59,891 nucleotides of DNA from a virus. Made by a program: the position numbers and the translations under genes. This document shows positions 1 through 59,891 of this stretch, piece by piece (position 1 is the first letter of the stretch; every line of letters starts with the position of its first letter). Below the pieces are notes generated by a model. The model was not told the DNA's origin. It saw nothing but the letters and a program-made list of their open reading frames with translations, and did not search any database. The stretch lies in the IMG/VR virus record IMGVR_UViG_3300006111_000001. The stretch is one strand, 5' to 3'.

Positions 1-120
1 TCAGATTGATATAGGTTGACGTGGAAACGGTCGGAGTCGCCGTCAACGTATCGCCGCTTTTCAAAAACAAATATGGATTTCCATAATTGTCCAATGGCAA
101 ACCCTGCCAAGTTGCAGAAT
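1..120. repeat. Terminal direct repeat, left copy (identical to 59772..59891)
   Basis: The first 120 nt of the window (tcagattgatataggttgacgtgg...gttgcagaat) recur exactly at the last 120 nt. The repeat lies inside the 3' end of a minus-strand ORF, so it is more likely circular-assembly overlap or terminal redundancy than an att site. Confidence 0.9.
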
Positions 121-450
121 TGAACATATTGACATTAAGCGCAGTCGAAACCGCACCGGCACCAGCCGGGATAGCAACCGTTGTTTGATAATAATTGACC
201 GCTGATCGGGTCACAAAAACCTGCACATTGTAAGCCGTGGACGTACAAGTATTTGCCGCTGTCAACGAAAAACACGCCGACCCATTGGCCCCAGCCGTGT
301 AAATCGTCACATTGTTAGCCGCATTGGATTGCACAAGGCCCAACGTAGGCGTTTGAACGGTTACAACGCTATTGGGCGTCGTTGCTGCATTGACCCCGCT
401 TGCAATGCCCACAAGTGATAATACAAGGGCCGAACTACAATAAAATTGAC
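1..450 (-). CDS. Fibre-module protein with signal-like N-terminus, T/N/G-rich (149 aa)
   Basis: Hand translation from ATG at 450..448 (MNARQFYCSSALVLSLVGIASGVNAATTPNS...STYINL) to TGA at 3..1. Not in the ORF track. Hydrophobic N-terminus followed by low-complexity T/A/N-rich sequence like the neighbouring fibre-module proteins. Confidence 0.45.
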
Positions 451-456
451 GCGCGT

Positions 457-1947
457 TCATTTTATGCCTCCAAAAGACCCCATAAGCACGGACACAGACG
501 CAGCTTGAATGTAAGCCGCCGTTGTTCCGCTAGATGATGTTCCGCAAGAAAAACCGGTGCCATTTGTGTAATTTAAATGATTGCCACCCGTATCCGTACA
601 TGATGGTAAGGTTGCAGCAGTTGGGCTTGCGGTTGAAGCGGTGACGTTTGCCACCACCGTATTTGCTGATTGTGTAGCGTGCATCGGTAAAGTGACCGTT
701 GCGGTATCCCCAGAAGTGATTACCGTGCCATTCACAGCTGGAATTGTTGTTGTAAAATTGGACGCTCCGGCGTTTGCCATGGTCAATGTATTAGCGCCCG
801 TCGATGACCCCAAAATCTTTATTGTTGAATTGTTATACGTTTGAACCGCCGTCCAAGTTTGCGCCAAATTCAATTCGGCAATGGTTCCGGTATTAGCTGG
901 TAAGGTTGCCGTGGTTGATCCGGCCACCGCTGTGGGAACAATCGTTGTGGCGCCACTTGTGGCACCTTGCATTATCAACGATCCGCCAACCGGCCCCGTT
1001 GATTGACCCAAAGTCAAAGCACCATTGGAAATCGTTGCATTGGCATTACCAGACACGGCATTTGTGGTTGAGGCGTAATAACTCAATTGCCCGGACGTAC
1101 CGGAATTGACCGTACCCGATCCGCCCGAAATAGTATTGCAGCCAAACCCCGTACTTGTGGTCCAAGTCAGCGCACTGGTCGCAGCCGAGCAAGATGGAAT
1201 GGCAAAAGACGCAATGTTAGCCGTTGACCCGGTGTTATTCCCCAAAATCGTGTTAGCCGTAATTTGCGGCAAATTTGCCAAAGTCAGACTATTTGACGGG
1301 AATGTAATCGTGGACGTTGCTTGCAGAGTGGTAAATTTGCCCGTGCTGGCCGTTGTGACGCCCACCGCCATGCTATTCAAACCGGTTGACGTTATGCTGC
1401 CAACGCTTGTTGGCGAAACAGTCCCCCCACCGGAATAAAAATTGATAACGCCCCCGGTTCCAAGCGCACCAATGTCAAATTCACCATCTGTAGTATAAGT
1501 ATAAGCCGCATGAGCAGCTGTAAACGGAGCTGCGGCCCCAGCACTATTATTTATGCCAAAATCCGCATAATGCGTTGAATCATTGCCATCGTCCGCCGTT
1601 ACAACAAAGTCAGATGAGGCACTTGATCCGCTATTGGTATTTTGAAGGCTCAATTGATAGAAATTATTGGCGTTTCCGGTAAATTGAAACGCCGTTGCGC
1701 CAGAACTTGTATATCCCGGCACACCCACATTGGTTCCCAGCGCAATTGATCCGCTTGTGGTGATCGGATTGGCCGTACAGGTTAAGCCGCCATTGGTCGA
1801 ACACGTCACAGACGTAACCGTACCCGATCCGCTGCCACCACTTGACGCCCCCGACGAAATCACAATTCCACTATTTCCCAATTGCTGAGCAATTGCGGGA
1901 ACGCAAACAATCAAGCCAAATAAAACAATAGCAAGCCGCTTCATCAT
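457..1947 (-). CDS. Putative tail fibre / receptor-binding protein, G/S/T-rich
   Basis: 496 aa; hydrophobic signal-like N-terminus (MMKRLAIVLFGLIVCVPAIAQQ); extreme Gly/Ser/Thr/Asn richness; sits in the distal tail module. Confidence 0.5.
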   Translation of the reverse strand: MMKRLAIVLFGLIVCVPAIAQQLGNSGIVISSGASSGGSGSGTVTSVTCSTNGGLTCTANPITTSGSIALGTNVGVPGYTSSGATAFQFTGNANNFYQLSLQNTNSGSSASSDFVVTADDGNDSTHYADFGINNSAGAAAPFTAAHAAYTYTTDGEFDIGALGTGGVINFYSGGGTVSPTSVGSITSTGLNSMAVGVTTASTGKFTTLQATSTITFPSNSLTLANLPQITANTILGNNTGSTANIASFAIPSCSAATSALTWTTSTGFGCNTISGGSGTVNSGTSGQLSYYASTTNAVSGNANATISNGALTLGQSTGPVGGSLIMQGATSGATTIVPTAVAGSTTATLPANTGTIAELNLAQTWTAVQTYNNSTIKILGSSTGANTLTMANAGASNFTTTIPAVNGTVITSGDTATVTLPMHATQSANTVVANVTASTASPTAATLPSCTDTGGNHLNYTNGTGFSCGTSSSGTTAAYIQAASVSVLMGSFGGIK

Positions 1948-2339
1948 TTGTAATAGCTCACGTTGATAGTGGCGCTTGCAGTCGTTTGAATAAACTGCAA
2001 CGAAGCCAGATTGCCCGTGTAAGACAAAGCAGAACCCGCCGCGACCAGCATGCCAACAGATGCAGTTGGTGCCACACCATCATCGCGCCACCGAACAGAT
2101 TGTGTTTCAACCACGATAACAGCCAATGTCGCCCCGGTCGGCACGGTCAAAAACGTTGCCCCAGACAATGAGGTGATTTGCTGATACCCCAATGGCGTTA
2201 CAAATGCCGTGGACACCGTGCAGCTTGGTTGACTGCCAGGGCATCCAACCGTTGAAATCTTACTTGGAACAACGCTTGCCGCAGTTTGGGCAAAAGCCGG
2301 TGATACCAAAAGCCAAAAAACGACAATTAACCATTTCAT
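1944..2339 (-). CDS. Small secreted/structural protein (signal-peptide-like N-terminus)
   Basis: 131 aa; MKWLIVVFWLLVSPAFAQ leader; start overlaps upstream stop (translational coupling). Confidence 0.45.
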   Translation of the reverse strand: MKWLIVVFWLLVSPAFAQTAASVVPSKISTVGCPGSQPSCTVSTAFVTPLGYQQITSLSGATFLTVPTGATLAVIVVETQSVRWRDDGVAPTASVGMLVAAGSALSYTGNLASLQFIQTTASATINVSYYK

Positions 2340-4747
2340 TTTTTGGCCTCCAATTCTTCAAGCCGGGCAGTGAGTTCACGCACCGCTTGCCACAACACCG
2401 GAATTAATTGATCCGGCCTCAAATGATGTGTGCCATCTTCGTCTTGCACATATCCGGCAAAATCTTTGCCCGTGGCGGCAAACGCATCGCGCACTTCGGT
2501 AGCCAAGAAACCCCAATGGGTCCGCTTGCCAGGACGATCCACAAATTTTTTAACTTTGACCTTTTTTGCGATCATGCGCGGGACAGGGTGCATTTTTTGC
2601 TGCAATTGTCCCGGCTCGCCTTTTTTGCCCGGCACAAATTCCATGACCGGATTGCCATCGGCATCAACCACCGGCATCAAGTCATAAACGCCAGTTTCCG
2701 TTTTAACGATCCGGTCAAACGCAACCGGCTTGCCGTCCACAATTTGAATATCGTGAACAACGCCCTCAGACACTTCGCTTTCGTGAACAAGTTGATCTTC
2801 TTCAACTTCAATTTCATCCCGTCCACCGGCAATCCACTTAAACGTCTTTGGTTCAAGGGATTTAATGATGGGCAACACATCCGAAACCGGCTCAATATCG
2901 GTTTTTAAACTTGGATCAGATGTTTGAATGGTGCCATTGACAGCCCACACCGCAGACCACCGGCCCGCCGCCGTGCCGCATGTGTAAGCATTGTCAGATA
3001 ACCCAGCCAAATGACCGCCAAACACAGCCGCATAACCACCGCCCCCGGTAAATGTGGCGCGTCCATTTAACGTCAAACCAGCCAGAACGCCCGTGCCGTC
3101 AATGTTAATATAAGCACTGGACGTTCCGCCGCTCAAAATGCCCACTTGACCAGACACGCATTGAATATAAGCCGTCCCCGGATTCATTGTGGAATCTGGA
3201 AACGCTTTACCCGCCCCATATGATCCGTTTAAATAAATGCGAGCGGAATCGGCCAAAACAATCGATGCACTGGTGCCAGGATTATATCGGTGCGCTTGGG
3301 TCAAGTCGATTGCCGCGCGATACCCGGACAGACCTTTAAACGAAATGCCCGCGTCCACCGGAAATTTTACAGTAGACCCGCCAATAACATTGGTTCCGCT
3401 GGAATCCATCAGCCAGCCAATCCACGTATTGCCGTAACCAACAGTCGTCGTGGTTCCGCTGTAGAAAGTGGATTGCGACGTGCTGGACCCGGCTCGCAGC
3501 ATGCTATGAAACCAACCGATACATGCCACGTCATAAGATGTGGTGCCAGAAAGATTGGTGTAATCAAATTCAAACGGGTTTAGATACGTGCCATCTTTGT
3601 AAGACGTGGCCCCGCCGTTCATGATTGAAACGGCAGGACACGTTGCAAACCCATAAGTCGCATCGCCGGACGTAATTGTGGGCTTGGCCAATGCCGAAAT
3701 GCCAACATTGACATTCAACGCGGCGCAATCGCCCTTATTGTCCTGATAGACATTTAATTGCATGCCAACGGCGCTTGTCCGTTGCGTCAACGGATTGCCA
3801 AAAACGGTATAATCCGTGCTGCTATTCCAGCCCGAATAGTTCCGCATAAACAAAGCAAAGGGAAAGGTTTGCGGCATGTAATAAATACCGGTTGAATACC
3901 CCCCCAGCGTGTTTAGGCCGGTGACATAATGTTCAATGGAAAAATTCTGGCGCGACCAATCCCCGTTAAAATATTTGGTATTATCGGCCAAAGCAAAATT
4001 AGTCAGGTCCGGTTGCATTGTGACCATTGAATAAAATTTGCCGCGCTTGGATTGCGAGCCATCCAACGCCAAAGACGCAACTTGCCCTTGACCATAGAAA
4101 TTTGCCGTTAATTTCGGCCAAGTCTGATATGTCGCACCACCCGTCGAGCTTCCGCCATCCGATGACGCGGTTATGGTTGTGGTATAAAGCCCAACGGGAA
4201 CATAAATGCTGCCATTTGTATTGGCGCCAATCGCCGTTGTGACCGCAACCGTATTGTCATACCCATAAGTCGAAATACCGCCATAATACGCAAGATTGCG
4301 CGGCAAATCCTGATCTTGAATGTTCCGAAATGTCGGAGACGCGGTGACACCCGTGGACGCATTCCCCGGCCCCGCCAAAAATGTTTGGCTGGACACCGAA
4401 ATAAACGACGCGCTTAAAGTGCCAAACGTGGTGACGGGCGATCCGGTAATACCAAATAAAGCCGTGGGCAAAAATAGGCCAACCGAATTGACCCCAGCCC
4501 CAGATACCGCGACCCAGCCCGCGCTTGTCGTGGTTCCCGTGGTGACACATGCATAATAAGCCCGATTGGTCACGTCATAGCAGAAATCGGGCGGTACACC
4601 CCCGGCAACACCTTGCTGCCCGGCAACATGCCCGTTTGGATTCCCGGCATAGACAAAGACATTAGGCGATTGAATATTTGAACTCATAAACCACCTATTG
4701 AACAAACCAATTGCCCGCGCCATCGCATTGCAGCGTTGCACTGGCAA
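2336..4747 (-). CDS. Tail fibre/tailspike with C-terminal intramolecular-chaperone (peptidase S74-like) domain
   Basis: 803 aa. C-terminal ~195 aa carry the hallmark pattern of the endosialidase/T5 L-shaped-fibre chaperone domain: ...TSDPSLKTDIEPV... and terminal ...HLRPDQLIPVLWQAVRELTARLEELE. N-terminal body is G/S/T-rich. Confidence 0.6.
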   Translation of the reverse strand: MPVQRCNAMARAIGLFNRWFMSSNIQSPNVFVYAGNPNGHVAGQQGVAGGVPPDFCYDVTNRAYYACVTTGTTTSAGWVAVSGAGVNSVGLFLPTALFGITGSPVTTFGTLSASFISVSSQTFLAGPGNASTGVTASPTFRNIQDQDLPRNLAYYGGISTYGYDNTVAVTTAIGANTNGSIYVPVGLYTTTITASSDGGSSTGGATYQTWPKLTANFYGQGQVASLALDGSQSKRGKFYSMVTMQPDLTNFALADNTKYFNGDWSRQNFSIEHYVTGLNTLGGYSTGIYYMPQTFPFALFMRNYSGWNSSTDYTVFGNPLTQRTSAVGMQLNVYQDNKGDCAALNVNVGISALAKPTITSGDATYGFATCPAVSIMNGGATSYKDGTYLNPFEFDYTNLSGTTSYDVACIGWFHSMLRAGSSTSQSTFYSGTTTTVGYGNTWIGWLMDSSGTNVIGGSTVKFPVDAGISFKGLSGYRAAIDLTQAHRYNPGTSASIVLADSARIYLNGSYGAGKAFPDSTMNPGTAYIQCVSGQVGILSGGTSSAYINIDGTGVLAGLTLNGRATFTGGGGYAAVFGGHLAGLSDNAYTCGTAAGRWSAVWAVNGTIQTSDPSLKTDIEPVSDVLPIIKSLEPKTFKWIAGGRDEIEVEEDQLVHESEVSEGVVHDIQIVDGKPVAFDRIVKTETGVYDLMPVVDADGNPVMEFVPGKKGEPGQLQQKMHPVPRMIAKKVKVKKFVDRPGKRTHWGFLATEVRDAFAATGKDFAGYVQDEDGTHHLRPDQLIPVLWQAVRELTARLEELEAKK

Positions 4748-5492
4748 AATTGGATCGAAGGTTAAAAGCGGACGTGGACCCTAAAATGGTGTCCCCGGAA
4801 TAAGGCGTCACAGCGATATTGTAGGTTTGAGCCGTGCCAATTTCGTCAGTAACGGTAATTTTGTTCCAGATATAAGTGGACGTGCATTGGTAAAGATTTT
4901 CGGTCTTGTTTGAAGCCGTGGCACTTTTCCAAGCAATCGTGCTTAGAGACGGAATTGCGGTATCCGTTGACCCAGATGTGATTTGGCGCCCCACATTGGC
5001 CGTTGACGTTGTGGTGGACACGGATAGTGAATTAATCTGGCTTTGAAGCTGTTGAGTGATATAGGTTAGGTAATCTAACCCGCCCTCAATCGCCTTAAAT
5101 GTCGGCCCCTGGTTGGAAATCGACACCGTTTGAACCAAAGGAACCACACGCGAAATCGTGATGTAATATCCCGCCGATAATGGCGATCCGGTTAAGGGAT
5201 AAGTGACCGTCCCGCCAATGCTTCCAACCCCTGTCAGGGTGTATTGGCTTGGCGTTAATGTGGTCAAAGTGTTGGGAGTGACATTGGTATTTAATACTGT
5301 GATGACCGCATCCCCAGCCGACACCATGGGGAAATTATAGGTGAACGAGGTTGTAACCCCATTTCCTTGCGCCGTGGTCGAACTTGACGTGGTTGAAACG
5401 GTCGAAAATACCGGGTCCGCAATCAGTCCCAGTACAACAAAGACCAGAATTTTAAACACGGCGGACAAGCGCATTTGCACCTTTTCCGCCAA
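4695..5492 (-). CDS. S/T-rich structural protein (fibre module)
   Basis: 265 aa; hydrophobic N-terminal segment then Ser/Thr-rich sequence; start may be the TTG at 5492 or the internal ATG (MRLSAVFK). Confidence 0.4.
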   Translation of the reverse strand: MAEKVQMRLSAVFKILVFVVLGLIADPVFSTVSTTSSSTTAQGNGVTTSFTYNFPMVSAGDAVITVLNTNVTPNTLTTLTPSQYTLTGVGSIGGTVTYPLTGSPLSAGYYITISRVVPLVQTVSISNQGPTFKAIEGGLDYLTYITQQLQSQINSLSVSTTTSTANVGRQITSGSTDTAIPSLSTIAWKSATASNKTENLYQCTSTYIWNKITVTDEIGTAQTYNIAVTPYSGDTILGSTSAFNLRSNFASATLQCDGAGNWFVQ

Positions 5493-5566: not shown

Positions 5567-8500
5567 CTATTCGCCATTCCTAGCCCGCATTTTATCTTCC
5601 ATTGCACCTTTGATAATGTCGTTTGGCCCCCCGACACTTTGAGCCGCAATCATATTTGCCGCAGCCGTCCGGCTGGATGAAATCGTTTTGGTGATGGTTT
5701 CCGCCCGGATATTCTTGGGGATTTGCTGCCAGCCCGGATTTTGAACCAAAGCGTTTAATCGCATTTTGGCTAACCGGCCCGCCGTCTGGGCATATTGGTC
5801 ATATTGCTCATCGGTCAAATCCTGCCCTCGGATTGACCGGCGCAATTTCCCAACCCCCAGACCCAAGGCGTTCATTTCCTTAACCACCGAATCATTGGCA
5901 TAACGATCCGCCGTGCCACTTTGCGGGATTGGTTCGCCAAACATATCTCGTTTGGGCAATAGGCCAATTGAGACAAACGGCACCTTGGCCTTGGCGGCAT
6001 CCAATAAGGTCCGCGCTTCGCGTTGATACGGATCGACCGCGTGAGCCACTTGACTCATGCCAACGCTAAACGGCATCCAATTGATGACCATCCCTCGAAT
6101 ATAGCTTTCGCCATATTCTTCCGGATGAAACACCGCATTCAGCATGTCAGACAATCCTTTCATAAAGGTTTCATCCAACACCGCTTTATTAAACCCTTCA
6201 AACGCCGCTTTGGCTAAAACCGTGCCATCTTCACCATCCCAGCCATGCGCGGCTTCGGTCATATTGGCCCCAAACCGCATAAGCATGGCAAACGGCCCCA
6301 GACGGTCATAGGCCACCGACACATCGCCAATGGTAATGTGATTGGGTTTATTGGCCATCAGCCACACACGGCGCTCATTGGGATCAGCAGGGCCATCCCC
6401 GGTCATCAACCCATTTAAGGTCATCATGACGGATGTACCGATTAAAGCCGTGCCGGTGGCGATTTTGCCAAATTGCATGTCTTGAGCAGACCCGCCGTTT
6501 TGCCCGGACAAATTGCCGCGCACGTCCCTATCCAATAAGCCAATGGGCGAGCGTTCAATAAATGCTTCGCGGGTTATTTGGGTGCCAATTTTCATAAACG
6601 GCACAATGATTTTTGCCGCTAGGTTTGAATTGGCCGCAGCTGTTAATTTCCCTGAAAACGAATTGTAATCCGCAGGCGCCATGAATAATTCTTTCATGGC
6701 ATCCGCACTTGCAGCAATCATCATTTCCGGTGTCGGCTTTTGAGTTAATTCCGCAACCCGTCCTTTGAACGCATCCCCGGTCAAACCATCATTCATGGCT
6801 TCCCGATAGGCCAAAGATTGAATGTTTTGCTCATATCGCAGGGATTTAAAAAACGAGTGAATGGCCGCAACCGATTTGGACGGCACATTGATAATTTCGC
6901 CAACCTTGCCCGGAATGGCCCGCGTGTTCATATCGGTAAAATGACCAGATACCTTTTCCCCAGGCAATGCAGGGGAAATGCCGGTTTTAAACGCTTGCGT
7001 TGCCGCCATTAAGCCATCGGATGATCCCTTCATCATGCCGTATAATTGCGCGCCCGCCTCACCTAAATAAACTCGATTTTTGACCTCATAGCCCAAAGCC
7101 TCGCGCGCCGCGCCGACCGCAGACGCCACCGGAATTTCGATCAAAGGACGCGCCAAGGCATTTAACGCATTGCCCACCGAATACCGGGCATGGGTTATCG
7201 GCCCCGAAATCAAAGCATTAACGTAATATTCCAATATGGCGTTTTTGATCGACCCACGGGCGGAATCATTAACAAACTTGGCCACTTGTCCCGGCGTTTG
7301 CAGGTTCATCCCAAATTGCGCTTCTTGCCTTAGTTGTTCCGGTGTCCGGCCAATGGTGCTTTGGAAGAATTGCGCCAACGCTTCGGCATCCGCCGACCCT
7401 TCCAGCTTACGGAATGCTCCCAACGCCCGGCCAGCTTCCGCCGTAATCCCCGCCACTTGCTCTTGAATCATCAAGTGACGTTGCCGCGCTTTGGCATAGG
7501 CCATCACATCGGCATCCGATCCATTGGCCGCTTTTGCCATCAAATCACGCACTTCCGTCGCAGATTGAATTAACAGCTTTCGAGCCGCAAGGATTTGTTC
7601 GGCGTTGAACGCTTCCCCGATCCGGCGCCAATTGAGTTTTGCCGCATTCATGCCCAAAGCATCGGCCAGGTCCAATTGTTCCCCGGCAGAAATCACGCCC
7701 CGCCGTGCGGCCATGAAATCTTCATTATCCGCCGCCGTTTGACGCAAAACTTCTTTTACATCTTCCGGTGTATTGAGATTATCTAACCGGATATTCCCGG
7801 CCTTATCTACAAGGTCTGATTCATCGGTTGCGAACCGCTCATTGGGTCCGGCTGGGTATTCTGTCTTGCTCCCATTAGACCTAGTGCTGCGTCCGCGTGA
7901 TCCGCTGCTTTCTTGAACATCGACCGCACCTCCTCCGGCAGGTCCTGATTGCCCGCCATCATCCGCGCTCTTGATCGGCCCTCTAGCAGATTCTTCCGCC
8001 CGGTATTCATTTTCCAAATCCTCCTCGGTGCGCGGATTGTCGTAATCCGGCACGTTATCACCTTCCCAAGCATCGCCTTTGGCTTCTAAATGAGACTTGG
8101 CCCATTCTTCCGCGTGGCGCAATTCGCGCTCAAAATCCGCTTCCTGAGAATGAATTTCCTTTAATTGTTCTTCGGTTGACATGCGGCTGGCAACTTCATT
8201 CCAGAACTCGCTATGCGACATGCCGTCCGCTTTAATGCCCAATTCCCCGGCAATTCGATCCACTTCGGAATTGTGGTTTAAAGCATCCTGATAGGCTTTA
8301 ACCTTGTCATAATCAAAATCGGAGAATTGATGGTCCCCGTTTACGTCACGGGTTAGCTTTTCCAAAAATTGATTAATCGTGGGACGTTCACCGCCCAATT
8401 CAGGGAAAAACCCGGCTTCTTCCGCCGCTTGCGCCACCCGGTCAATATCTTTGCCCGTTTTGCGCAGCACCCCGCCATTACGCTTGCCACCAAACAATGC

Positions 8501-36770: not shown

Positions 36771-36771
36771 A

Positions 36772-51375: not shown

Positions 51376-51453
51376 AGGATCAGGTGTAATTTTCGTTACA
51401 CTTTGGGGGTTTTTCAGGGGCTAAGGATTTTCCCTAACCCCTTGAAAAATCTT

Positions 51454-52107: not shown

Positions 52108-52362
52108 CTATTTTGCTTCTCGCGCTAATTTGCGCGCTGGAATGGTTTTACAAAAATCAATTATTTGGATACAAGATTTACAAGTGACTTTGCCGCGCTC
52201 AGATTTGACAAAGAAATCATTACCTTCTTCGCCATCAAGCGAAAACCCACAAAGCGTATAATCTTCACCAGTCACAGAACCAGAATGAGCGATACCATTA
52301 TTTTCTATCCAAATCGCAATCATCGGTCGCTCCTTAATAATAAATGGACAAATCGCCTGCAC
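52108..52362 (-). CDS. Hypothetical small Cys-containing protein
   Basis: 84 aa; AT-richer accessory region. Confidence 0.3.
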   Translation of the reverse strand: MQAICPFIIKERPMIAIWIENNGIAHSGSVTGEDYTLCGFSLDGEEGNDFFVKSERGKVTCKSCIQIIDFCKTIPARKLAREAK

Positions 52363-52612
52363 ACGCTTGTCCCATGTCTTTCGTGGTGCAGTACGGATGG
52401 GTCATAGCAGCTCCTTATTTCATGTAACTGGTCACGCCGGATATTTTTTCCATATCGGCTTTAATAACTTCATTGACCACATGATAATGCCATCGCCAAA
52501 GCAATGAAATGACTTCATCTCTAGCGCGTCCGCGAGGCATAACCCACAAACCAAAATGGATTATATGTCGCGTCAAAGAATATCGAAAATTTTTCACGGC
52601 GACTCGCTCCTT

Positions 52613-52825
52613 TTATGCCGCTTTGATCATTGCCGTATAGCAAATGGCAGTTGTTTGTTTAGGCGGCGGGTAATCTTCGAACGGCGACAATGCGTCTATT
52701 TTGTTTTGATCCATGAGTTCTAACGCAGCTTGTAACCCAGCCGATATTTGTTTGTCAGTTGGTTCTTTGGGAACAATGACAAACCCTTGGGGGCATAGAT
52801 AAGTTAAAAGTTTAATCCACATCAT
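52613..52825 (-). CDS. Hypothetical small protein
   Basis: 70 aa. Confidence 0.3.
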   Translation of the reverse strand: MMWIKLLTYLCPQGFVIVPKEPTDKQISAGLQAALELMDQNKIDALSPFEDYPPPKQTTAICYTAMIKAA

Positions 52826-53010
52826 CGGCTCCTTAATAATTGGCGCGGGCTATCGCAGTCCACCATCCGGTAGCTGGATTATCTCTTACCGTACCCCCGC
52901 GCAGCACAGTCGTATTCTGTCGGAAATGTCCCCTATGGGCGTCATCAGCGGTCATCCGGCTCTGAATGACTTGAGATTGACCAAGACAGAAATCAGTCAA
53001 TTCGATGCTC

Positions 53011-53235
53011 CTATTGTGCAGTTTGTTTAAACCCAAAATATTCTGGATCGTCTGAAATTAAGTCAAATACTTTTCCATATTTCAAATCTAGCTTTTCATG
53101 GACAAGTGCCCAATGTGCTCCATCTGACAGGTCAAGCGTTTCGACCTCATCCATTATTTCTTTGATGCGCTTTTTAGACGGGTTCATGGTCGCTCCTTTA
53201 TTCCCAATTTTCATTATTAGCGCGGTCAACCGCAT
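53011..53235 (-). CDS. Hypothetical small protein
   Basis: 74 aa. Confidence 0.3.
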   Translation of the reverse strand: MRLTALIMKIGNKGATMNPSKKRIKEIMDEVETLDLSDGAHWALVHEKLDLKYGKVFDLISDDPEYFGFKQTAQ

Positions 53236-53395
53236 CTACGCCAATCGCCAATTTCTGCGCCTCGGTGAAAGTGTCCCATATTTCTCTTGTTTTGTAACCA
53301 ACGTGATTGCGCCAATTATGCACTCGACCGCCTTTCCCCCAAGATTGGGGAACTTCGAGGATTTCTTTGATAAGATATTCATCAAGCTCGTCCAT
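53198..53395 (-). CDS. Hypothetical small protein
   Basis: 65 aa. Confidence 0.3.
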   Translation of the reverse strand: MDELDEYLIKEILEVPQSWGKGGRVHNWRNHVGYKTREIWDTFTEAQKLAIGVDAVDRANNENWE

Positions 53396-53404
53396 TACCG
53401 GCTC

Positions 53405-54031
53405 CTAATTTGCTTTGCGCTTTTTGCAATCGCGCAATCGTGTGTAAATAATGCTTTCGCTGACTTTCAGCTTGGCCGCGATTTGCTTGATCGTCAGCCC
53501 TTCCTTGCGGAGGGCTTTAATCTGTTTCAGCTTTTCAGCGGTTAGTTTCTTGGGCGCACCTTGCCAGCCGCCCTCACGTTCTTTAAACGCCTGAATACCG
53601 GCTTTAGTCCGTTCAATGGTTAGCTGGCGTTCAAATTCCGCGACAATGGCGAATAGGCCAAGGATTAGCTTGCCGGTTGCTGTGCTGAAATCGAATTGCT
53701 CTGTCAGGGATTTAAAAGACGCGCCCGCATCGGAAATCTGGTCTAGCCGTGCGTATAGTTCACGCATATTGCGGGCCAGCCGATCTAGACGCCAGACCAC
53801 AAGGGTATCGCCCTCGCGCAAATCTTTCATGGCGTGTTCAAGTGCCGGTCTGGACTTAGACGCCGCCGATTTTTTTTCGATGTGGAGATTGTCGGGCAAC
53901 ACCCCGGCACGCTTAAGCGCGTCCACTTGAAGGTCAAGTTTCTGATCTTCTGTGAACACGCGGGCATACCCGATTAATCGGGTCGCGGGCAGGTCTGGCA
54001 ATTTTGTGCGTCGTTTCAAAACCATGACCAC
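53405..54031 (-). CDS. Serine recombinase (Hin/Gin invertase-resolvase family) with Phe in place of the catalytic Ser
   Basis: 208 aa; strong family match (…DTLVVWRLDRLARNMRELYARLDQISDAGASFKSLTEQFDFSTATGKLILGLFAIVAEFERQLTIERTKAG… plus C-terminal HTH), but the nucleophile motif reads GYARVFTEDQ (codon ttc) instead of GYARVSTxxQ. Confidence 0.75.
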   Translation of the reverse strand: MVMVLKRRTKLPDLPATRLIGYARVFTEDQKLDLQVDALKRAGVLPDNLHIEKKSAASKSRPALEHAMKDLREGDTLVVWRLDRLARNMRELYARLDQISDAGASFKSLTEQFDFSTATGKLILGLFAIVAEFERQLTIERTKAGIQAFKEREGGWQGAPKKLTAEKLKQIKALRKEGLTIKQIAAKLKVSESIIYTRLRDCKKRKAN

Positions 54032-54119
54032 ATTTTACATGAAACGGCCAGATAGTCAACAAATAGCGTATGATTTTTACACTGGAATTAGCGAATGGCT
54101 ATTGCAGTCTAATTTGATC

Positions 54120-54140
54120 CGTGTATAATGGGGACACCAA
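54120..54140 (+). promoter_or_regulatory. Candidate extended -10 promoter for the plus-strand accessory operon
   Basis: …tgTATAATggggaca… (TGnTATAAT) ~25 nt upstream of the 54156 ATG, followed by GGAG RBS. Confidence 0.35.
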
Positions 54141-54155
54141 CACGGAGACACGACA

Positions 54156-54374
54156 ATGACCATCGAAAAGAATATTTCAATTTTTGACGGAAACGACCAG
54201 GAACACGCCGAATTTATTCGCGGCTGCGTCAAAAGCCTTGGCGGTGAAATCCCCGCTCATTGGTCAGACGAAGCGGTAATCGAGTTTTTTAATACCCTGT
54301 CTAACGATGCCCCGCGCATTTATACGGACATGGAAAAAGCAGATATGAAATATCAAGCCCAAATGGCTGAATAA
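54156..54374 (+). CDS. Hypothetical protein
   Basis: 72 aa; first gene of the plus-strand accessory operon. Confidence 0.4.
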   Translation: MTIEKNISIFDGNDQEHAEFIRGCVKSLGGEIPAHWSDEAVIEFFNTLSNDAPRIYTDMEKADMKYQAQMAE

Positions 54375-54388
54375 GAAAGGCCCGACTA

Positions 54389-54652
54389 ATGCGTTATGTT
54401 CTTGAGGGTGAATGGAGCGGATACGTAAGCGCCCAACAAAAGGTGCATCATCGGGAAATTGTGCCCGCATCTTTGGTTAAGGATATGCGACTGCACACAA
54501 TCCAATTTACCGATGGAACTTATTTGAGGATTAAGTGTTGGGAAGCCAAGCCGCGTGAACGCATTGAAACCAAAGACCAGTATGGCCGGTTGATACGTGA
54601 CGCAATTCGGATTGGCAAACCTTTTGTCACCGTCAGCGAACTCAAGCAATAA
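54389..54652 (+). CDS. Hypothetical protein
   Basis: 87 aa; preceded by the conserved TAA-AAAGGCCC-N5-ATG junction. Confidence 0.4.
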   Translation: MRYVLEGEWSGYVSAQQKVHHREIVPASLVKDMRLHTIQFTDGTYLRIKCWEAKPRERIETKDQYGRLIRDAIRIGKPFVTVSELKQ

Positions 54653-54663
54653 AGGCCCGCTCC

Positions 54664-55182
54664 ATGCGCGACATTCACAAAGACATTGGCGAAAAGCTAA
54701 AAGCAACGCTTGATGCTGCAATAGGCGAGACTGCGCTTAAAGCCGTCAAAGAAAAGACAAAAGAAATTATCCAAGAAATTGAAGATGATCTTGAATACCG
54801 CGTCAAAGATGATCTGGCTTACAATTTGGTCGAATATGTGGCCGATATGGCAAACAAAACAATTGACGCTTTATTGCGCGGCAATGAAAACGAAATGCGC
54901 CGGTATCTTGGTTGCGAACGTGGCGCTTGGACAGGTCGAAGCGATGCCGATGTATGTGGTGCCAAGCGTCCAGACGATCAATGGCACCAAGTCATAAACG
55001 GCACCTTGTCCGAATATGGCGGCTTAGATTTACGGCGCAAAATCGCAGATGCTTACGCCGATCTTATCAAAAATGAGCGCATTCTTGATTTGGAAAATCA
55101 GGTGAAATGCCTTGTTGCCCAGGTTAATAAATTGGAAGCCCAAAAACGTGACATTTGGGAACGCCGTGGCGAATACGCTTAA
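54664..55182 (+). CDS. Hypothetical coiled-coil protein
   Basis: 172 aa; preceded by the conserved AAAGGCCC junction. Confidence 0.4.
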   Translation: MRDIHKDIGEKLKATLDAAIGETALKAVKEKTKEIIQEIEDDLEYRVKDDLAYNLVEYVADMANKTIDALLRGNENEMRRYLGCERGAWTGRSDADVCGAKRPDDQWHQVINGTLSEYGGLDLRRKIADAYADLIKNERILDLENQVKCLVAQVNKLEAQKRDIWERRGEYA

Positions 55183-55204
55183 CCCTAGAATAAAGGCCCC
55201 GACT

Positions 55205-55456
55205 ATGACCTTATCAGATTTAGTTGACCAAGCATCCGATCTTGCCGCAGACCTGCACAACAAGGCCGCATTGATTGAGCGCGGTAAAGCCAATCTTAAC
55301 CTAAGCGGCGATGCGGATCATTCCGTGATCCAAGCGTTTACATCACTGGCAACGGCGGCGGCTGCAATGGCAAACGCTTTGATAATGCAAAGCGCATTGA
55401 CCAAGCAAAAAGCCGACAATGACGCAATCCGCGCCACCCTCAAAGCTAAACAATAA
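55205..55456 (+). CDS. Hypothetical protein
   Basis: 84 aa from ATG at 55205 (in frame within track ORF 55112..55456); preceded by AAAGGCCCCGACT. Confidence 0.35.
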   Translation: MTLSDLVDQASDLAADLHNKAALIERGKANLNLSGDADHSVIQAFTSLATAAAAMANALIMQSALTKQKADNDAIRATLKAKQ

Positions 55457-55467
55457 AGGCCCAGACC

Positions 55468-55650
55468 ATGATCCGCAGACGCGCCAAAATCACCATTACG
55501 GTATCCGTTGATTTGGATGATGTGCCGGGTGCTTACTACCAGCCCGAAGATTGGGTGCAAATGATGACAGGTGAAATTTTGTCTCGCGCCAATCACTATA
55601 ACCCAAAACTTGAAGCCACTGACATTGAAGTCAGTCGCATCACTCAATAA
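55468..55650 (+). CDS. Hypothetical protein
   Basis: 60 aa; preceded by AAAGGCCCAGACC. Confidence 0.35.
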   Translation: MIRRRAKITITVSVDLDDVPGAYYQPEDWVQMMTGEILSRANHYNPKLEATDIEVSRITQ

Positions 55651-55661
55651 GGCCCCGCGCT

Positions 55662-56834
55662 TTGATTCGCTCATTCAACTACATCCCAGCGCGTGCAGCC
55701 GGTCAAATTTTGTTTGACGGATTCCCATATCAATCCGCGATTGAGTGGCCCAATTTCATTCATGGCCAATGTCAAAACATTCAAGCCAATGGTCAGCCCG
55801 ATCAATTTGGATGGCGATACAAAACCATTGACGGCACCCCTTACCTTTTGGCCGATGACCCATTTGTGGTCAAATTAAAAAACGCAATGGTTCAGCGCGT
55901 CAATTTTGGTCAAGACCGCTGGCACGTTGCCGTCAGCCCAGGGGTTTGTATTGAAGAAACCTATTATTCGGGCGAATGGTTTAACCGTTTTTGCGGTCAA
56001 ACCATGAGAATCCCCACCAATGCCGGATCGTTTGACGTGCATGTCATGGAAGATATTGCGCCAGAGTCGGTGTCATCCGTCCCCAGCGTATTATTGGCTC
56101 ATCAATGGGACACGAATTATGCGCATTGCCTAATGGAAACCGTGGGAAAATTGTTTTTAGCAGAACATTGGGACGATCATTTGCCGCAGCTAATCTGGAA
56201 CCCGACAACCCCATATCAGCGCGAGATTGCGGATTTGCTATCAATCAAATACGTTCCGCAAACCCAAAAAGCCGTTCAATACGATGAATTATATGTCATT
56301 TCCCAATTTGCCCATAACGGGATTTGCGCGGAACAGTTCAAACAAATCCGCGCGCTGTTTCAACAAAGGCTTTGCGACAAAATCCCTTATTTCTCAAATC
56401 CCCCAGTTACATCAGGCAACAAGCGCATTCTGATTTCCAGAAACGACGCCACCAGCCGCCGTATTGCTAATGAATCAAACATAATGACCGCCCTGGCTCC
56501 CATGGGCTTTGAGCGTGTCACGTTGAGCAATTTAAGCGTGCTCGACCAGGCCAAGCTATTTCATTCAGCATCAATCATTGTGGCGCCACACGGCGCCGGA
56601 TTAATGAATATGCTGTTTGCCAGCCCCAGCACCGCCTTGATTGAAATTGCCCCCGAATCCTACCAGCACCCTTTGTTCTGGTACGTCGCCAAGTGGTTGG
56701 GCCATTGGTACGGGCGAATCATCACCCCGGATCACGGTTCCGAAAAAGACATGATTGTTGACATTGCGGCGGTTAAAAACGCCATTGACGCCGCCATATC
56801 GTCTAAAAGTGTACGGTCATCACTTGTTGCATAG
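55662..56834 (+). CDS. Glycosyltransferase, GT61/DUF563-like
   Basis: 390 aa; C-terminal …RILISRNDATSRRIANESNIMTALAPMGFERVTL…LFHSASIIVAPHGAGLMNMLFASP… resembles the DUF563/GT61 core. Confidence 0.55.
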   Translation: MIRSFNYIPARAAGQILFDGFPYQSAIEWPNFIHGQCQNIQANGQPDQFGWRYKTIDGTPYLLADDPFVVKLKNAMVQRVNFGQDRWHVAVSPGVCIEETYYSGEWFNRFCGQTMRIPTNAGSFDVHVMEDIAPESVSSVPSVLLAHQWDTNYAHCLMETVGKLFLAEHWDDHLPQLIWNPTTPYQREIADLLSIKYVPQTQKAVQYDELYVISQFAHNGICAEQFKQIRALFQQRLCDKIPYFSNPPVTSGNKRILISRNDATSRRIANESNIMTALAPMGFERVTLSNLSVLDQAKLFHSASIIVAPHGAGLMNMLFASPSTALIEIAPESYQHPLFWYVAKWLGHWYGRIITPDHGSEKDMIVDIAAVKNAIDAAISSKSVRSSLVA

Positions 56835-56889
56835 CTAAAAAGGCATCAAGGTAAATAAAAACGCCTTTTAACCCCTTGGAGTAACGACA

Positions 56890-57378
56890 ATGAAAAACGC
56901 CCTATTAGCTTTATTGGCCCTAATGTTTATTGCACCCCCAGCCATGGCCGGAGGAACGCCGTGTCAAATGTTCGCCGGGTATTTTCGCTGTAACGGCGGC
57001 AATCAGGCTTTATGGGTGCCAAATTCCGGCCTGTATTGGAACCCCAGCGAAGGCGGTACAAGCTGGACCATCCAACAATCCACCAATGGCCACACAATCC
57101 TGATTTCTGGCCTTGGATGGAGCGATACCGGCAACGGCAATGCAGATTGGTATTTGGCCAGACTAGAGCCGGTTGACACCGAAACGGCGCCTAACGTTTA
57201 TACGTCAACGTCAACAATTCAGTGCATCGGCGGTCAAGGTCTGTCATCGCCCAATTATCTTGCGCCCAATTGCGTTTTGACCGGCAAATCCATTTCGCTA
57301 ACGCTGGAAAGCACAACGGCTGGCACTTTGGTTTACGGCACCAGAACCAGCCACGTTGAAAATTACGTCAATTTTTAG
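56890..57378 (+). CDS. Secreted protein (signal peptide)
   Basis: 162 aa; MKNALLALLALMFIAPPAMAGG leader; last gene of the plus-strand accessory operon. Confidence 0.45.
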   Translation: MKNALLALLALMFIAPPAMAGGTPCQMFAGYFRCNGGNQALWVPNSGLYWNPSEGGTSWTIQQSTNGHTILISGLGWSDTGNGNADWYLARLEPVDTETAPNVYTSTSTIQCIGGQGLSSPNYLAPNCVLTGKSISLTLESTTAGTLVYGTRTSHVENYVNF

Positions 57379-57640
57379 TCCGGCAATTGGCTTCGACATT
57401 ACGATTGTGAATAACCGCCCATTGCTTTTCCGAACGCGTCCATCTTGATTCAAAATCTGAATCAGGATGGACTTCGGAAAGCCACCCGCACGCAGTTGGA
57501 TTAGGCGCCGGATTTTCCGCGCAACTCGCTGTCAAGATCAGCGTCAGACATGCGCCGCACATCATCATGAATGATTTGAGCATTTCGATCCTCCGCAACA
57601 GCGGATTGCAAATCAACCGCTTGTTGTTCAATTCGGCCAT
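57368..57640 (-). CDS. Lipoprotein, o-spanin-like (overlapping the i-spanin-like gene)
   Basis: Lipobox-like …LILTASC…, Pro-rich; overlaps 57501..57734 in another frame as in Rz/Rz1 pairs; likely starts at an internal Met. Confidence 0.4.
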   Translation of the reverse strand: MAELNNKRLICNPLLRRIEMLKSFMMMCGACLTLILTASCAENPAPNPTACGWLSEVHPDSDFESRWTRSEKQWAVIHNRNVEANCRTKN

Positions 57641-57734
57641 GATCCCTTAATCCCTTGTCTCGAACCATATCAACAATCTTCGCCCCTATGGACGACACGA
57701 TGGTCGAGACAAGGGATAAAAGGGCTTCAATCAT
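57501..57734 (-). CDS. i-spanin-like protein (N-terminal TM plus charged helical segment)
   Basis: 77 aa; MIEALLSLVSTIVSSIGAKIV hydrophobic N-terminus then charged helix. Confidence 0.4.
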   Translation of the reverse strand: MIEALLSLVSTIVSSIGAKIVDMVRDKGLRDHGRIEQQAVDLQSAVAEDRNAQIIHDDVRRMSDADLDSELRGKSGA

Positions 57735-58084
57735 TGACCAGCCGTTTGTTGCGCGCCATGGGCTTGAGCAATGGCCGTTGACAGAGCAACCGCCAGTGAC
57801 GCCGCCCCAGCCTTTACACCCGCCGCAACCGCCGCTTTAGCCGTGCTGGACGCCGCATCGCCAATGGCTTGAGCCGCAGCATGCAAATCAGTCGGATTGC
57901 TGGCAACCGCTTGAATGGCCGAAGTGGCAAATTGTTCCGCAAACGGAATCAATGTGGCCACTTCGGCGTGTTCAATTTGAGAAACAGCATCGGTCACAAA
58001 CGGCTCGACAGCCTTGTGAAACCATTGTGAAAACCAAGACATATTAAACCCCGTTTGTTTGAAGGGATTGAGGATCAATTTCAC
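57731..58084 (-). CDS. Hypothetical Ala-rich protein in lysis cassette
   Basis: 117 aa. Confidence 0.35.
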   Translation of the reverse strand: MKLILNPFKQTGFNMSWFSQWFHKAVEPFVTDAVSQIEHAEVATLIPFAEQFATSAIQAVASNPTDLHAAAQAIGDAASSTAKAAVAAGVKAGAASLAVALSTAIAQAHGAQQTAGQ

Positions 58085-58355
58085 GGATTAACTTGCGCCG
58101 GATGGCATCCACCAACGGCACCAAAGACGCCCCCACAATCAGCGCCACTTCATCGCCAGGCACAACCAATTGACCGGCGCTCAGGCAATGAATGACCCAT
58201 TGCAACACAAGCCCAGCGCCAGCCGTGGACATGGCAACAGCGGACGTGGAAGTATTTTGACTGGTGTTCATAACATTACCCTGATAAAGCCGACGCAGCC
58301 GCTTGAGCAAGCTGATTATCGGTATATGGATCAGACCCGTTTTCGTGATGGACAA
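58044..58355 (-). CDS. Hypothetical membrane protein
   Basis: 103-aa track ORF with hydrophobic helices; overlaps neighbours, start uncertain. Confidence 0.3.
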   Translation of the reverse strand: MSITKTGLIHIPIISLLKRLRRLYQGNVMNTSQNTSTSAVAMSTAGAGLVLQWVIHCLSAGQLVVPGDEVALIVGASLVPLVDAIRRKLIREIDPQSLQTNGV

Positions 58356-58710
58356 TGGCGCGCGTCAACGGGATCAAAACCAATTGAGACGACAAATTCA
58401 CATATTCATCCGGTCCGCATCCGGTCAAATTGCACACATCGCTTTTATATGCCTCAGTGTCATTTTCCGATGGGGGCGCCCATCGATCAATTGCGCCAGA
58501 AATCGTATTAATGCCGTGCAGCACTTGATAATTTTTCAACGTAATCATCAGCGCCCGCAAACCATCTTCCGGCGTATCAAATTCGCAAAATTGATCGTCG
58601 GAACCCGGCACCACTTGCCCTTTCCAAATGGTTTTGGAAAGTTTGATATTGCCAGGATTGTTTAATCGAATGCCGCGCGCGGTCATTTTTTGATCCATCG
58701 TTTTTCGCAA
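58276..58710 (-). CDS. Lysis-cassette protein, candidate endolysin/cell-wall hydrolase
   Basis: 144 aa; conserved-looking N-terminal …RGIRLNNPGNIK… motif; flanked by holin-like and spanin-like genes. Enzymatic class not recognised with confidence. Confidence 0.35.
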   Translation of the reverse strand: MRKTMDQKMTARGIRLNNPGNIKLSKTIWKGQVVPGSDDQFCEFDTPEDGLRALMITLKNYQVLHGINTISGAIDRWAPPSENDTEAYKSDVCNLTGCGPDEYVNLSSQLVLIPLTRAIVHHENGSDPYTDNQLAQAAASALSG

Positions 58711-58901
58711 ATACGATAAACCCCGTGAACCGCAATAATCGCGCCACCAATGGCGCCAATTCCGTGCGCAACCCCCAACGTGCTTTCGACAAAATCATGC
58801 CATGTCGGCAACGTCATTAGAATGAATCCTAACGCGGCCTCAAGCGCACCGTGCAGCTCAGTCTTATGGTCCATTTCCCCATTACTCCAATACCGTGACA
58901 T
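58683..58901 (-). CDS. Holin-like small membrane protein
   Basis: 72 aa with two hydrophobic helices (…ALGFILMTLPTW… and …GIGAIGGAIIAVHGV…) and basic C-terminus. Confidence 0.4.
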   Translation of the reverse strand: MSRYWSNGEMDHKTELHGALEAALGFILMTLPTWHDFVESTLGVAHGIGAIGGAIIAVHGVYRICEKRWIKK

Positions 58902-58907
58902 GATTTT

Positions 58908-59759
58908 TTACCAAAAGATTGCCGCGTAACCCGCTGTTGCGTTACCACCTGATTGCGCGCTTGTACCAGCAGCGGCACCACCGCCACCACCACCATATCC
59001 AGAAGCATTACCGCCCGCTGCACCAGCGGCAGTAGCGTTGGCTCCATCGCCACCTTTGCCTAAGTACCCACCACCACCACCACCACCAGCCGTGCCGGAA
59101 GCTGCGCCCGATCCCCCCAAAGATGAACTTGAAAATAATGAGGCTGCACCATAGCCGCCTTGATAGACTGTACCTGAGTTGCGTTGACCAGCACCACCAC
59201 CACCTGGATAACCGCCGTCAGTAGAAGTGGTTGATCCAGAATAAATACCGCCCGGACCGCCACCACCAGACATGCCCCCTGGATAAACAAGCGCTTTATT
59301 AAGGCCACCACCGGCTGAGTAAGTAACACCACCAACAACTAACGTGGTAGCTGTGCCATTACCGCCAATTGCACCACTTGCAGCAGCGCCAGCAGCGCCA
59401 ATTGTTATGGTTGCACTAGACCCAATGTAGACGGGGAAAAATTCAACGCCACCAGCACCACCGCCGCCGCCGCCCTCTGTTCCACTTGCAGGGGTGCCAT
59501 TGCCAGCAGCACCCCCGCCAACAAGTAAAACGTAATAAACGCCATACCCTTTGCCTTGCGTGACCGGATTAAATGTCCCGCTTGCCGTGTAGGCAACTTG
59601 ATAATTAAGACCGCTTAGGCCAATAAATGCTTTGCCAGCAGCGGGACCCGCCCCAGGCGCAACATTCAACGGCGTTGCAACCGCAAAGCCTAACTGACCA
59701 ATTGCGAATAAAAGCGCAATTAATCCAAAGCGAAGATTCTTAAGCATTTTAGAAATCAC
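58908..59759 (-). CDS. Glycine-rich fibre-module protein with signal-peptide-like N-terminus
   Basis: 283 aa; MISKMLKNLRFGLIALLFAIGQLGFAVA leader; long poly-Gly/Ala/Ser tracts; precedes the lysis cassette. Confidence 0.5.
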   Translation of the reverse strand: MISKMLKNLRFGLIALLFAIGQLGFAVATPLNVAPGAGPAAGKAFIGLSGLNYQVAYTASGTFNPVTQGKGYGVYYVLLVGGGAAGNGTPASGTEGGGGGGAGGVEFFPVYIGSSATITIGAAGAAASGAIGGNGTATTLVVGGVTYSAGGGLNKALVYPGGMSGGGGPGGIYSGSTTSTDGGYPGGGGAGQRNSGTVYQGGYGAASLFSSSSLGGSGAASGTAGGGGGGGYLGKGGDGANATAAGAAGGNASGYGGGGGGAAAGTSAQSGGNATAGYAAIFW

Positions 59760-59771
59760 CGCAAACAGAGG

Positions 59772-59891
59772 TCAGATTGATATAGGTTGACGTGGAAACG
59801 GTCGGAGTCGCCGTCAACGTATCGCCGCTTTTCAAAAACAAATATGGATTTCCATAATTGTCCAATGGCAAACCCTGCCAAGTTGCAGAAT
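59772..59891. repeat. Terminal direct repeat, right copy (identical to 1..120)
   Basis: Exact 120-nt match to window start; implies a unit genome of ~59771 bp. Confidence 0.9.

Follow-up and report, generated by a model that had tools for sequence, protein, structure and literature searches.

The IMG/VR virus record IMGVR_UViG_3300006111_000001, a stretch of 59,891 nt to which we refer throughout as the window, encodes a phage with genes on both strands (Table 1). One minus-strand transcription unit starts at the Cro-like gene (42410), passes 457, and ends at 57368 on the far side of the circle junction. Along it we find the small terminase, a split large terminase, the portal, an insert of 5.6 kb, a scaffold-like protein, the capsid, a Bbp16-like protein, and a hairpin; beyond the hairpin lie small open reading frames (ORFs), including a Gp10-like one, and then the tail adaptor, the tail nozzle, internal proteins, fibres and spike, and lysis genes. 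We examined 92 ORFs, which cover 94.7% of the window; the largest stretch outside this set, 239 bp, is the attP region. All 92 ORFs were scanned against PHROGs, and each ORF of at least 100 aa against Pfam. The late-operon genes named in a first-pass annotation of this DNA (portal, scaffold-like, capsid, gp11- and gp12-like, small and large internal proteins, and fibres) are all present by PHROGs, Pfam, or phmmer. Their order had been called T7-like, and this describes the overall sequence of genes, although the insert separates the portal from the scaffold. The terminator that it reported exists as a hairpin, but 3′ of the second gene past the capsid gene, not of the capsid gene itself.

The first 120 nt of the window are identical to its last 120 nt; the window is thus a closed circular assembly with a true length of 59,771 bp. 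When 50,697 phage records were searched by megablast with 44 kb of the window, there was no match, so the identification had to go via proteins. By phmmer, we find collinear matches to gp3, 4, 5, 6, 7, 8, 11, 12, 13, and 14 of Salmonella phage epsilon15 (eps15), together with further matches to its tailspike N-terminus, TerS, and C5 methylase. In the annotated epsilon15 record the modules follow one another as they do here: repressor/cro, C5 methylase, replication initiator, junction resolvase, terminases, and portal to tailspike, followed by (conversion and) lysis genes, attP and integrase, and recombination genes, and so back to the repressor. Epsilon15 is a temperate phage, and its record lists no polymerase gene. 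On this basis we very probably have in the window the whole circular genome of a temperate podovirus, uncultured so far, that belongs by its structural genes to the epsilon15 group.

The best capsid matches among the same phage records (tblastn) are to Uetakevirus and related temperate podoviruses, at 46–47% identity, and the nozzle is 34–37% identical to those of Ab31-like, epsilon15-like, and Caulobacter phages. Closer relatives are found in metagenomes. More than 100 capsid relatives at 71–86% identity, every one of them metagenomic and dozens of them on contigs of 58–68 kb, appear to make up a sizeable uncultured clade. Three metagenome-assembled relatives (L007–L009) show the same structural synteny. 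Remoter relatives, with portals ~45% identical, are on viral contigs of 40–48 kb, the usual epsilon15 size.

Table 1. Features of the window with the matches found for them (eps15, epsilon15; attB lies on a separate bacterial contig)
Feature	Coordinates	Strand	Matches and remarks
496-aa fibre/spike protein	457-1947	-	in receptor-binding block 457-5492
803-aa spike/fibre with S74 chaperone	2336-4747	-	Pfam Peptidase_S74
265-aa protein with eps15 tailspike N-terminal domain	4695-5492	-	eps15 gp20 N-terminus 8e-19
1826-aa ejection protein, at position of internal protein D	5567-11047	-	phrog_6651 internal virion protein 1.2e-24, residues 1520-1689
781-aa muralytic internal protein, eps15 gp15 counterpart	11044-13389	-	eps15 gp15 3e-4; own endolysin 1e-5
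Internal virion protein B	13389-13925	-	phrog_418; eps15 gp14 6e-15; Pfam T7_gp14 29.5 bits (cutoff 27)
Internal virion protein A	13926-14378	-	phrog_308; eps15 gp13 9e-24
Tail nozzle (tubular tail B, gp12-like)	14375-17524	-	phrog_376 7e-172; eps15 gp12 2e-102
Tail adaptor (tubular tail A, gp11-like)	17525-18292	-	phrog_394 1.4e-28; eps15 gp11 4e-17
Gp10-like capsid staple	18326-18625	-	precomputed Pfam PF21628 match on identical gene in contig L001
Terminator-like hairpin	20492-20518	-	9-bp GC stem then UUUU; dG -23.7 kcal/mol, z -3.9
Bbp16/eps15 gp8-like capsid accessory	20530-21039	-	Pfam Bbp16 26.8 bits (cutoff 27.1); eps15 gp8 1e-6
Major capsid protein, epsilon15 gp7 family, 346 aa	21052-22092	-	Pfam GP7 PF20911 1.5e-121
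Scaffold-like, eps15 gp6 counterpart	22089-22946	-	phrog_458 9.5e-24; eps15 gp6 9e-8
Insert between portal and scaffold, 5.6 kb	23298-28935	-	small ORFs, glycosyltransferase, metallophosphoesterase-like protein
Metallophosphoesterase-like protein, 455 aa	24453-25820	-	in the insert
Double glycosyltransferase, 561 aa, two glycosyltransferase-like regions	25828-27513	-	Pfam Glycos_transf_2, Anp1
Portal, T7 gp8 family	28935-30800	-	Pfam Head-tail_con PF12236 6.3e-137; eps15 gp4 1e-108; T7 gp8 3e-4
Large terminase in two pieces	ATPase part 32446-33219; nuclease part 31158-31919	-	Pfam Terminase_6N, Terminase_6C
HNH_3/NUMOD4 homing-endonuclease ORF between the large terminase pieces	31925-32449	-	Pfam HNH_3
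Small terminase	33457-33903	-	Pfam Terminase_2 3e-24; eps15 TerS 5e-8
GcrA-like regulator, end of early block	34846-35406	-	Pfam GcrA 2e-11, above cutoff
Early/replication block	35940-41450	-	Pfam and PHROGs; without polymerase, primase, or DnaB
DUF1376 initiator-type protein	35940-36770	-	early block
DnaA-HTH-like	36772-37032	-	early block
N6 methylase, CcrM-type	37029-37907	-	early block
SF2 helicase	37835-39313	-	early block
C5 methylase	39467-40654	-	eps15 C5 methylase 1e-76
RusA	40651-41082	-	early block
GapR-like	41082-41450	-	early block
Cro-like regulator at the head of the long operon, divergent from CI	42126-42410	-	YdaS_toxin 8e-21; HTH_3 2e-6; phrog_35
22-bp perfect palindrome in switch region	42376-42397		unique in the window, 0 expected by chance
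CI-like repressor	42458-43120	+	Pfam HTH_3 1.2e-12, Peptidase_S24 1.1e-10; phrog_4 transcriptional repressor 2.4e-40
Recombination module: PD-(D/E)XK exonuclease, Sak4-like annealing ATPase, single-stranded DNA-binding protein (SSB)	45239-47777	+	Pfam DUF3799/PDDEXK_1, AAA_24, SSB
Tyrosine integrase, full length	50323-51375	+	Pfam Phage_integrase 1.4e-13; phrog_1 8.6e-29
attP core	51434-51498	-	3′ 46 nt of tRNA-Lys(UUU) and 19 nt downstream
End of late operon over the circle junction	57368-59759	-	glycine-rich 283-aa protein, membrane protein, endolysin, spanin-like
Rz-like spanin	57368-57640	-	phrog_1275
Endolysin, 144 aa	58276-58710	-	phrog_873 1e-47
Empty attB	contig L071, 1352-1446		complete tRNA-Lys(UUU) gene between queA and RcnA-like metal-efflux gene

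Head, tail, and lysis genes

The particle genes belong to the T7-related ("ejectosomal") podovirus lineage, which bears out the T7-like virion of the first-pass annotation. An epsilon15 homology group (epsilon15, BPP-1, BcepC6B, VP5, and Liberibacter SC1) has been defined whose two tubular tail proteins (A and B) and three of whose internal proteins (A, B, and D) are, by HMM–HMM (hidden Markov model) comparison, homologous to and syntenic with those of T7 (Hardies et al. 2016, PMC4819975). Our direct comparisons with T7 show only a thin similarity, in the portal and gp14 families and in the nozzle, but are consistent with that finding. Directly compared with T7 gp12 by hhalign, our nozzle profile matches residues 351–602 over 233 columns at P = 0.0014, with a probability of only 17%; the match falls on the central domain reported in the same study. 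In profile searches of PDB, the adaptor and nozzle alignments did not reach the T7 gp11 and gp12 chains. Both proteins match chains of PDB entry 8CK1: the adaptor matches 8ck1_E, "Connector Protein" (2.4e-7 as a single sequence, 3e-39 as a profile), and the nozzle 8ck1_A, "Tail Nozzle" (1.3e-90). The nozzle of that solved entry is itself a homologue of eps15 gp12 (2e-208).

Residues 311–486 of the 781-aa internal protein align with residues 253–432 of eps15 gp15, which is its muralytic region, and residues 312–413 align with the phage's own endolysin; we therefore assign this protein as the gp15 counterpart. Because the endolysin is paralogous to the muralytic domain of the 781-aa protein, a single enzyme type appears to serve both entry and exit. 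The endolysin of the lysis block is homologous to the muralytic domain of epsilon15 gp15 as well (3e-34). A small membrane protein in the lysis block is a possible holin, judged on its position and a hydrophobic stretch only. The receptor-binding block on the minus strand also encodes a 131-aa protein, and there are tail fibre and tailspike PHROG matches within the block.

The capsid ORF as taken here opens at TTG, one codon before the called ATG. A generic promoter and terminator scan of the head–tail region performed at chance level and did not pick up the hairpin downstream from the Bbp16-like gene, which is a hairpin with only four U residues.

The two halves of the large terminase and the HNH ORF between them abut, and each of the three has a frame of its own. 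Against the intact large terminase of EBPR podovirus 1, the halves cover residues 3–231 and 242–466 in a single collinear alignment with 52% identity across the two, and nothing is missing. A group I intron does not explain the split, as no Rfam intron model was found there in a search of the whole window at the gathering threshold. There are PHROG families shaped like the two halves (phrog_31467 and phrog_5653), and in one further phage record, MW202785.1, the terminase is likewise in two pieces. These cases suggest that the split recurs.

The insert between portal and scaffold has PHROG matches to phrog_284 and phrog_14945. Its glycosyltransferase and a homologue of the 122-aa ORF at 22930–23298 are present at the same position in relative L007, where no homologue of the phosphoesterase was found at that position. 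The target of the glycosyltransferase could be the virion or the cell surface. Also within the insert are a coiled-coil protein and a small HExxH-like ORF.

Lysogeny and the integration site

A divergent CI (S24)/Cro switch, a feature of lambdoid phages, is present, as the first-pass annotation had it, and so are the integrase and the attP-like tRNA fragment. Both CI domains and the integrase are recognised by Pfam; on the Cro-like regulator, Pfam P22_Cro is sub-threshold. The perfect palindrome of the switch region is a candidate operator. With the Cro-like ORF called from a TTG, it falls within the 5′ end of that ORF, and it would be intergenic only if an internal Met is the start.

The minus strand just downstream of the integrase gene reads as the 3′ half of a tRNA, with the anticodon loop CUUUUAA, the T arm, the acceptor strand, and CCA. 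There is no full tRNA gene in the window by ARAGORN, and no Rfam family at the gathering threshold across its whole length; near the integrase, permissive Rfam settings yielded nothing beyond a weak match to the tmRNA model, over the tRNA-like fragment. We searched JGI metagenome contigs for an exact 42-nt match and found two: the phage itself and a bacterial contig of 3.3 kb, Ga0007854_10023176 (L071; GC content 56%, compared with 51% for the phage). The attP and this contig are 100% identical over 65 nt, at the end of a complete tRNA-Lys(ttt) gene. The two sites form an attP/attB pair of the classical kind.

The lambdoid-style recombination set described in the first-pass annotation is present as an exonuclease, Sak4, SSB, and RusA, but it is of the Sak4 type and not lambda Red. 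The PHROGs of the module are phrog_412, phrog_1366/phrog_124, and phrog_44. N and Q antiterminators, O/P-type replication genes, and lambda- or P22-type virion families were all without a match in PHROGs and Pfam.

One might ask whether the element still works as a temperate phage, or whether it has turned virulent, or is defective or plasmid-like, and has merely kept its lysogeny genes. The contigs found were free circles, along with an empty attB, and none spanned a junction; there is also the interruption of the terminase gene, and a serine recombinase is present besides the integrase. On the other hand, CI retains both its HTH and its S24 domain, the integrase is full length, and the two terminase halves are complete when combined. 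No partition or plasmid replication genes were found by PHROGs in the 92 ORFs, and a perfect match of 65 nt between attP and the attB of a co-occurring bacterium is unlikely to persist unused. We consider the loss of temperate function unlikely, and take the window as the genome of a temperate phage in what follows.

Two regions near these genes hold further features. In the early leftward operon, beside the recombination genes, there is a pentapeptide-repeat protein (44180–44740, plus strand; Pfam 3e-29), which may be a DNA mimic or an anti-defence protein. Downstream of attP, positions 51615–57378 form an accessory region with genes on mixed strands, among them a T5orf172/MUG113 nuclease-like gene and secreted or lipoprotein-like ORFs. 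This region also encodes a Hin/Gin-type serine invertase (53405–54031) and a GT61 glycosyltransferase (55662–56834). In the search for an invertible segment, only poor inverted repeats (72–77% complementary) were found, none of them convincing as flanks of such a segment, and the invertase has no clear target.

Polymerases, the 1826-aa protein, and use of the host

None of the PHROGs and Pfam scans revealed a family of RNA or DNA polymerases, of primases, or of DnaB-type helicases. In six-frame tblastn searches of the window, the best E-value is 0.49 for the T7 RNA polymerase, and 0.96 and 1.7 for the DNA polymerase and the primase-helicase. The absence of T7-type polymerases stated in the first-pass annotation is thus borne out, and so is its corollary: without RNA and DNA polymerases of its own, the phage must use those of the host for transcription and replication. 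As 94.7% of the genome lies in the examined ORFs, only the 781-aa and 1826-aa proteins are both large enough and unassigned.

The 1826-aa protein has no recognised Pfam domain. We detect 83 homologues, large polyvalent proteins of which some have ART-PolyVal, LPD3, LPD22, SLT, or acetyltransferase domains. In these relatives the domains are inserted near residue 550; the phage copy is without an insert. Residues 50–550, 550–800, and 1050–1826 form conserved blocks, with a variable stretch of ~250 aa, and an HExxH motif at residues 582–586 is nearly invariant among the homologues. This motif would fit the metallopeptidase module typical of injected polyvalent proteins. The AlphaFold models are nearly all-helical, with a mean confidence (pLDDT) of 68 for residues 1–1100 and of 80 for residues 1001–1826 (predicted TM-score, pTM, 0.71). 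A small domain at residues ~820–990 is modelled confidently. A fold search of the models against PDB gave no match at E ≤ 1e-3, and phmmer against PDB, a library that includes the T7 and N4 polymerases, gave coiled-coil noise only.

A protein of this kind is where one would look if the element really belonged to the T7-type (Autographiviridae-like) phages and its RNA or DNA polymerase had escaped recognition through divergence, fragmentation, or embedding in a large virion protein in the manner of N4 gp50. The virion RNA polymerase of N4-like phages is part of a homologous ejection protein (Hardies et al. 2016, PMC4819975; Iyer et al. 2017, PMC5512222), and the 1826-aa protein shares the chassis of metallopeptidase and ejection protein that carries the polymerase there; it is also ~900 aa longer than eps15 gp17, and its lack of Pfam domains leaves room for such an idea. 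Against this, none of the scanned ORFs matches a polymerase family, the PDB search yielded noise despite the polymerases in its library, and all the sequence blocks are shared with the polyvalent-protein homologues, and the variable region spans only ~250 aa. Genes on two strands and a CI/Cro switch are likewise unlike Autographiviridae. From sequence and models, we conclude that no polymerase is hidden in the 1826-aa protein. A T7-type phage with a cryptic polymerase is therefore highly improbable, and essentially excluded.

We give almost no credence to an assembly chimera of podovirus structural modules and lambdoid prophage regulatory modules: the window is a metagenome assembly whose GC content varies from 46% to 55% along its length, but it closes on itself, its module order equals that of cultured epsilon15, capsid relatives occur on dozens of contigs of similar size, and the identical capsid gene is found on contigs of nearly equal length from independent assemblies (59,867 bp, JGI 3300025435; 59,912 bp, ENA ERZ27271987). 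The same capsid gene is also on shorter pieces from other runs, including a 26-kb Logan piece. Stretches of 14–21 kb fetched from the three longest same-capsid contigs, on which the identity was computed, are 99.995–100% identical to the window.

Several points do weigh against a complete temperate genome of the epsilon15 group. The sequence comes from a metagenome assembly, and it is ~50% larger than the genomes of epsilon15-like isolates, without nucleotide-level similarity to them. Its large terminase is of a type unlike that of epsilon15; it is unmatched in the relatives with portals at 45% identity, and the closest one is that of EBPR podovirus 1. The 1826-aa protein is a putative internal protein D by one PHROG match and by position, an assignment confirmed neither by phmmer against eps15 gp17 and T7 gp16 nor by the fold search. 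The relation of the adaptor to T7 gp11 is not detectable by hhalign against the single T7 sequence (E = 0.3). Finally, no integrated copy (attL or attR junction) was found among the JGI metagenome contigs.

The host of this temperate podovirus is probably an uncultured freshwater alphaproteobacterium. This is indicated by the attB result, by the GcrA, GapR, DnaA-HTH, DUF1376, and CcrM-type genes, and by a two-fold depletion of GANTC across the genome (96 sites compared with 188 expected). The QueA fragment encoded by the attB contig has its closest named relatives in Phenylobacterium and Caulobacteraceae (66–69%), which allows only a rough placement. A match to a metagenome-assembled genome of Stellaceae was not relied on as a host clue, being to a 19-kb binned contig of 63% GC, as opposed to 51% for the phage.

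After infection, host sigma-70 RNA polymerase would transcribe divergently from the CI/Cro region, and in the prophage CI, through its S24 domain, would maintain silence until RecA-stimulated self-cleavage. For replication the phage would give initiator-type and accessory proteins only (DUF1376, DnaA-HTH-like, SF2 helicase, SSB, Sak4/exonuclease, and RusA) and recruit the host replisome. The late operon of ~45 kb might then be activated, with host RNA polymerase, by a regulator that the phage encodes at the early block's end. The GcrA-like protein is the most likely one; this is a conjecture, but its gene has the position usual for late activators. All four internal proteins (A, B, 781-aa, and 1826-aa) would be packaged and ejected, and would form a trans-envelope channel as in T7.

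GcrA-like, CcrM-type N6-methylase, and GapR-like genes, that is, alphaproteobacterial cell-cycle and nucleoid factors, occur together in this one phage. The GcrA-like protein has no tblastn match in the phage records. These factors are possibly used to steer host RNA polymerase. A more specific version is doubtful, namely that host RNA polymerase reads the late virion operon only once GcrA has activated it in a methylation-dependent way. GANTC sites show no obvious intergenic concentration, as judged by eye only. If this version is true, an alphaproteobacterial cell-cycle circuit would replace the role that the phage RNA polymerase has in T7, and dependence on the host would be actively managed.

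Comparison with epsilon15, T7, and other systems

With T7, the phage shares the portal family PF12236, the gp14 family, and the order portal, scaffold, capsid, adaptor, nozzle, internal proteins, and fibre. It differs from T7 in having no RNA polymerase, DNA polymerase, or primase-helicase, in having genes on both strands and a lysogeny module, and in a capsid of another Pfam family. Three features of Autographiviridae, a single-subunit RNA polymerase, a family-A DNA polymerase with a primase-helicase, and genes on one strand, are all lacking here.

The 1826-aa protein resembles polyvalent proteins and the N4 gp50 chassis in that its homologues carry ART-PolyVal, LPD3, and LPD22, and in its near-invariant HExxH (Iyer et al. 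2017, PMC5512222). Unlike them, the copy in this phage is without a recognisable effector domain or polymerase module. The large terminase of EBPR podovirus 1 is uninterrupted, whereas in our phage the HNH ORF splits it between residues corresponding to ~231 and 242.

The strongest likeness is to epsilon15 and Escherichia phage phiV10 (Uetakevirus) and to BPP-1, BcepC6B, and the Ab31-like phages, which are likewise temperate podoviruses without RNA or DNA polymerase genes. With epsilon15 the phage has in common the gp7-type capsid, the Bbp16/gp8-like and gp10-like accessories, the adaptor and nozzle, internal proteins A and B, a muralytic large protein, the N-terminal domain of the tailspike, the C5 methylase, and the genome-wide order of modules.

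There are substantial differences from these phages as well. At 59.8 kb the genome is larger than theirs (39–45 kb); it stands apart from them in capsid and nozzle at the low identities given above and has no nucleotide match. Genera are conventionally delimited by the International Committee on Taxonomy of Viruses at ~70% genome-wide nucleotide similarity. With no megablast match to the phage records and a capsid at ≤47% aa identity, the phage falls outside Uetakevirus on this measure. Its terminase is of a split T4 type as opposed to the P22/Sf6 type of epsilon15, and it has Sak4 and RusA in place of RecT and RuvC. Integration into tRNA-Lys, as predicted from attP, also sets it apart from epsilon15, as do the alphaproteobacterial-type regulators (GcrA, GapR, and DnaA-HTH) and the 5.6-kb insert inside the head module. 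A single protein of 1826 aa stands where epsilon15 has gp16 and gp17.

The first-pass annotation had presented the genome as an unusual hybrid of a T7-like virion and a lambdoid lifestyle. This view is not supported, since the virion module is specifically of the epsilon15 type and the genome is ordered as in epsilon15. "Hybrid" is the wrong word because epsilon15 is itself temperate, has no annotated polymerase, and had its link to T7 published in 2016. Epsilon15 and BPP-1 were already temperate podoviruses that combine T7-related particles with a lack of polymerases, so the layout, though real, is ordinary.

The value of the genome is thus descriptive: it offers a complete reference for an uncultured freshwater clade of 58–68 kb, with a defined tRNA-Lys attP/attB and a host that is probably an alphaproteobacterium. 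Two items might repay experiment, namely the split terminase and the pair of GcrA and methylase. The architecture is of the known epsilon15 kind, and the phage itself is a new, larger, and deeply diverged member, in which the epsilon15 chassis is seen enlarged by glycosyltransferases, methylases, host-type regulators, and a very large ejection protein.

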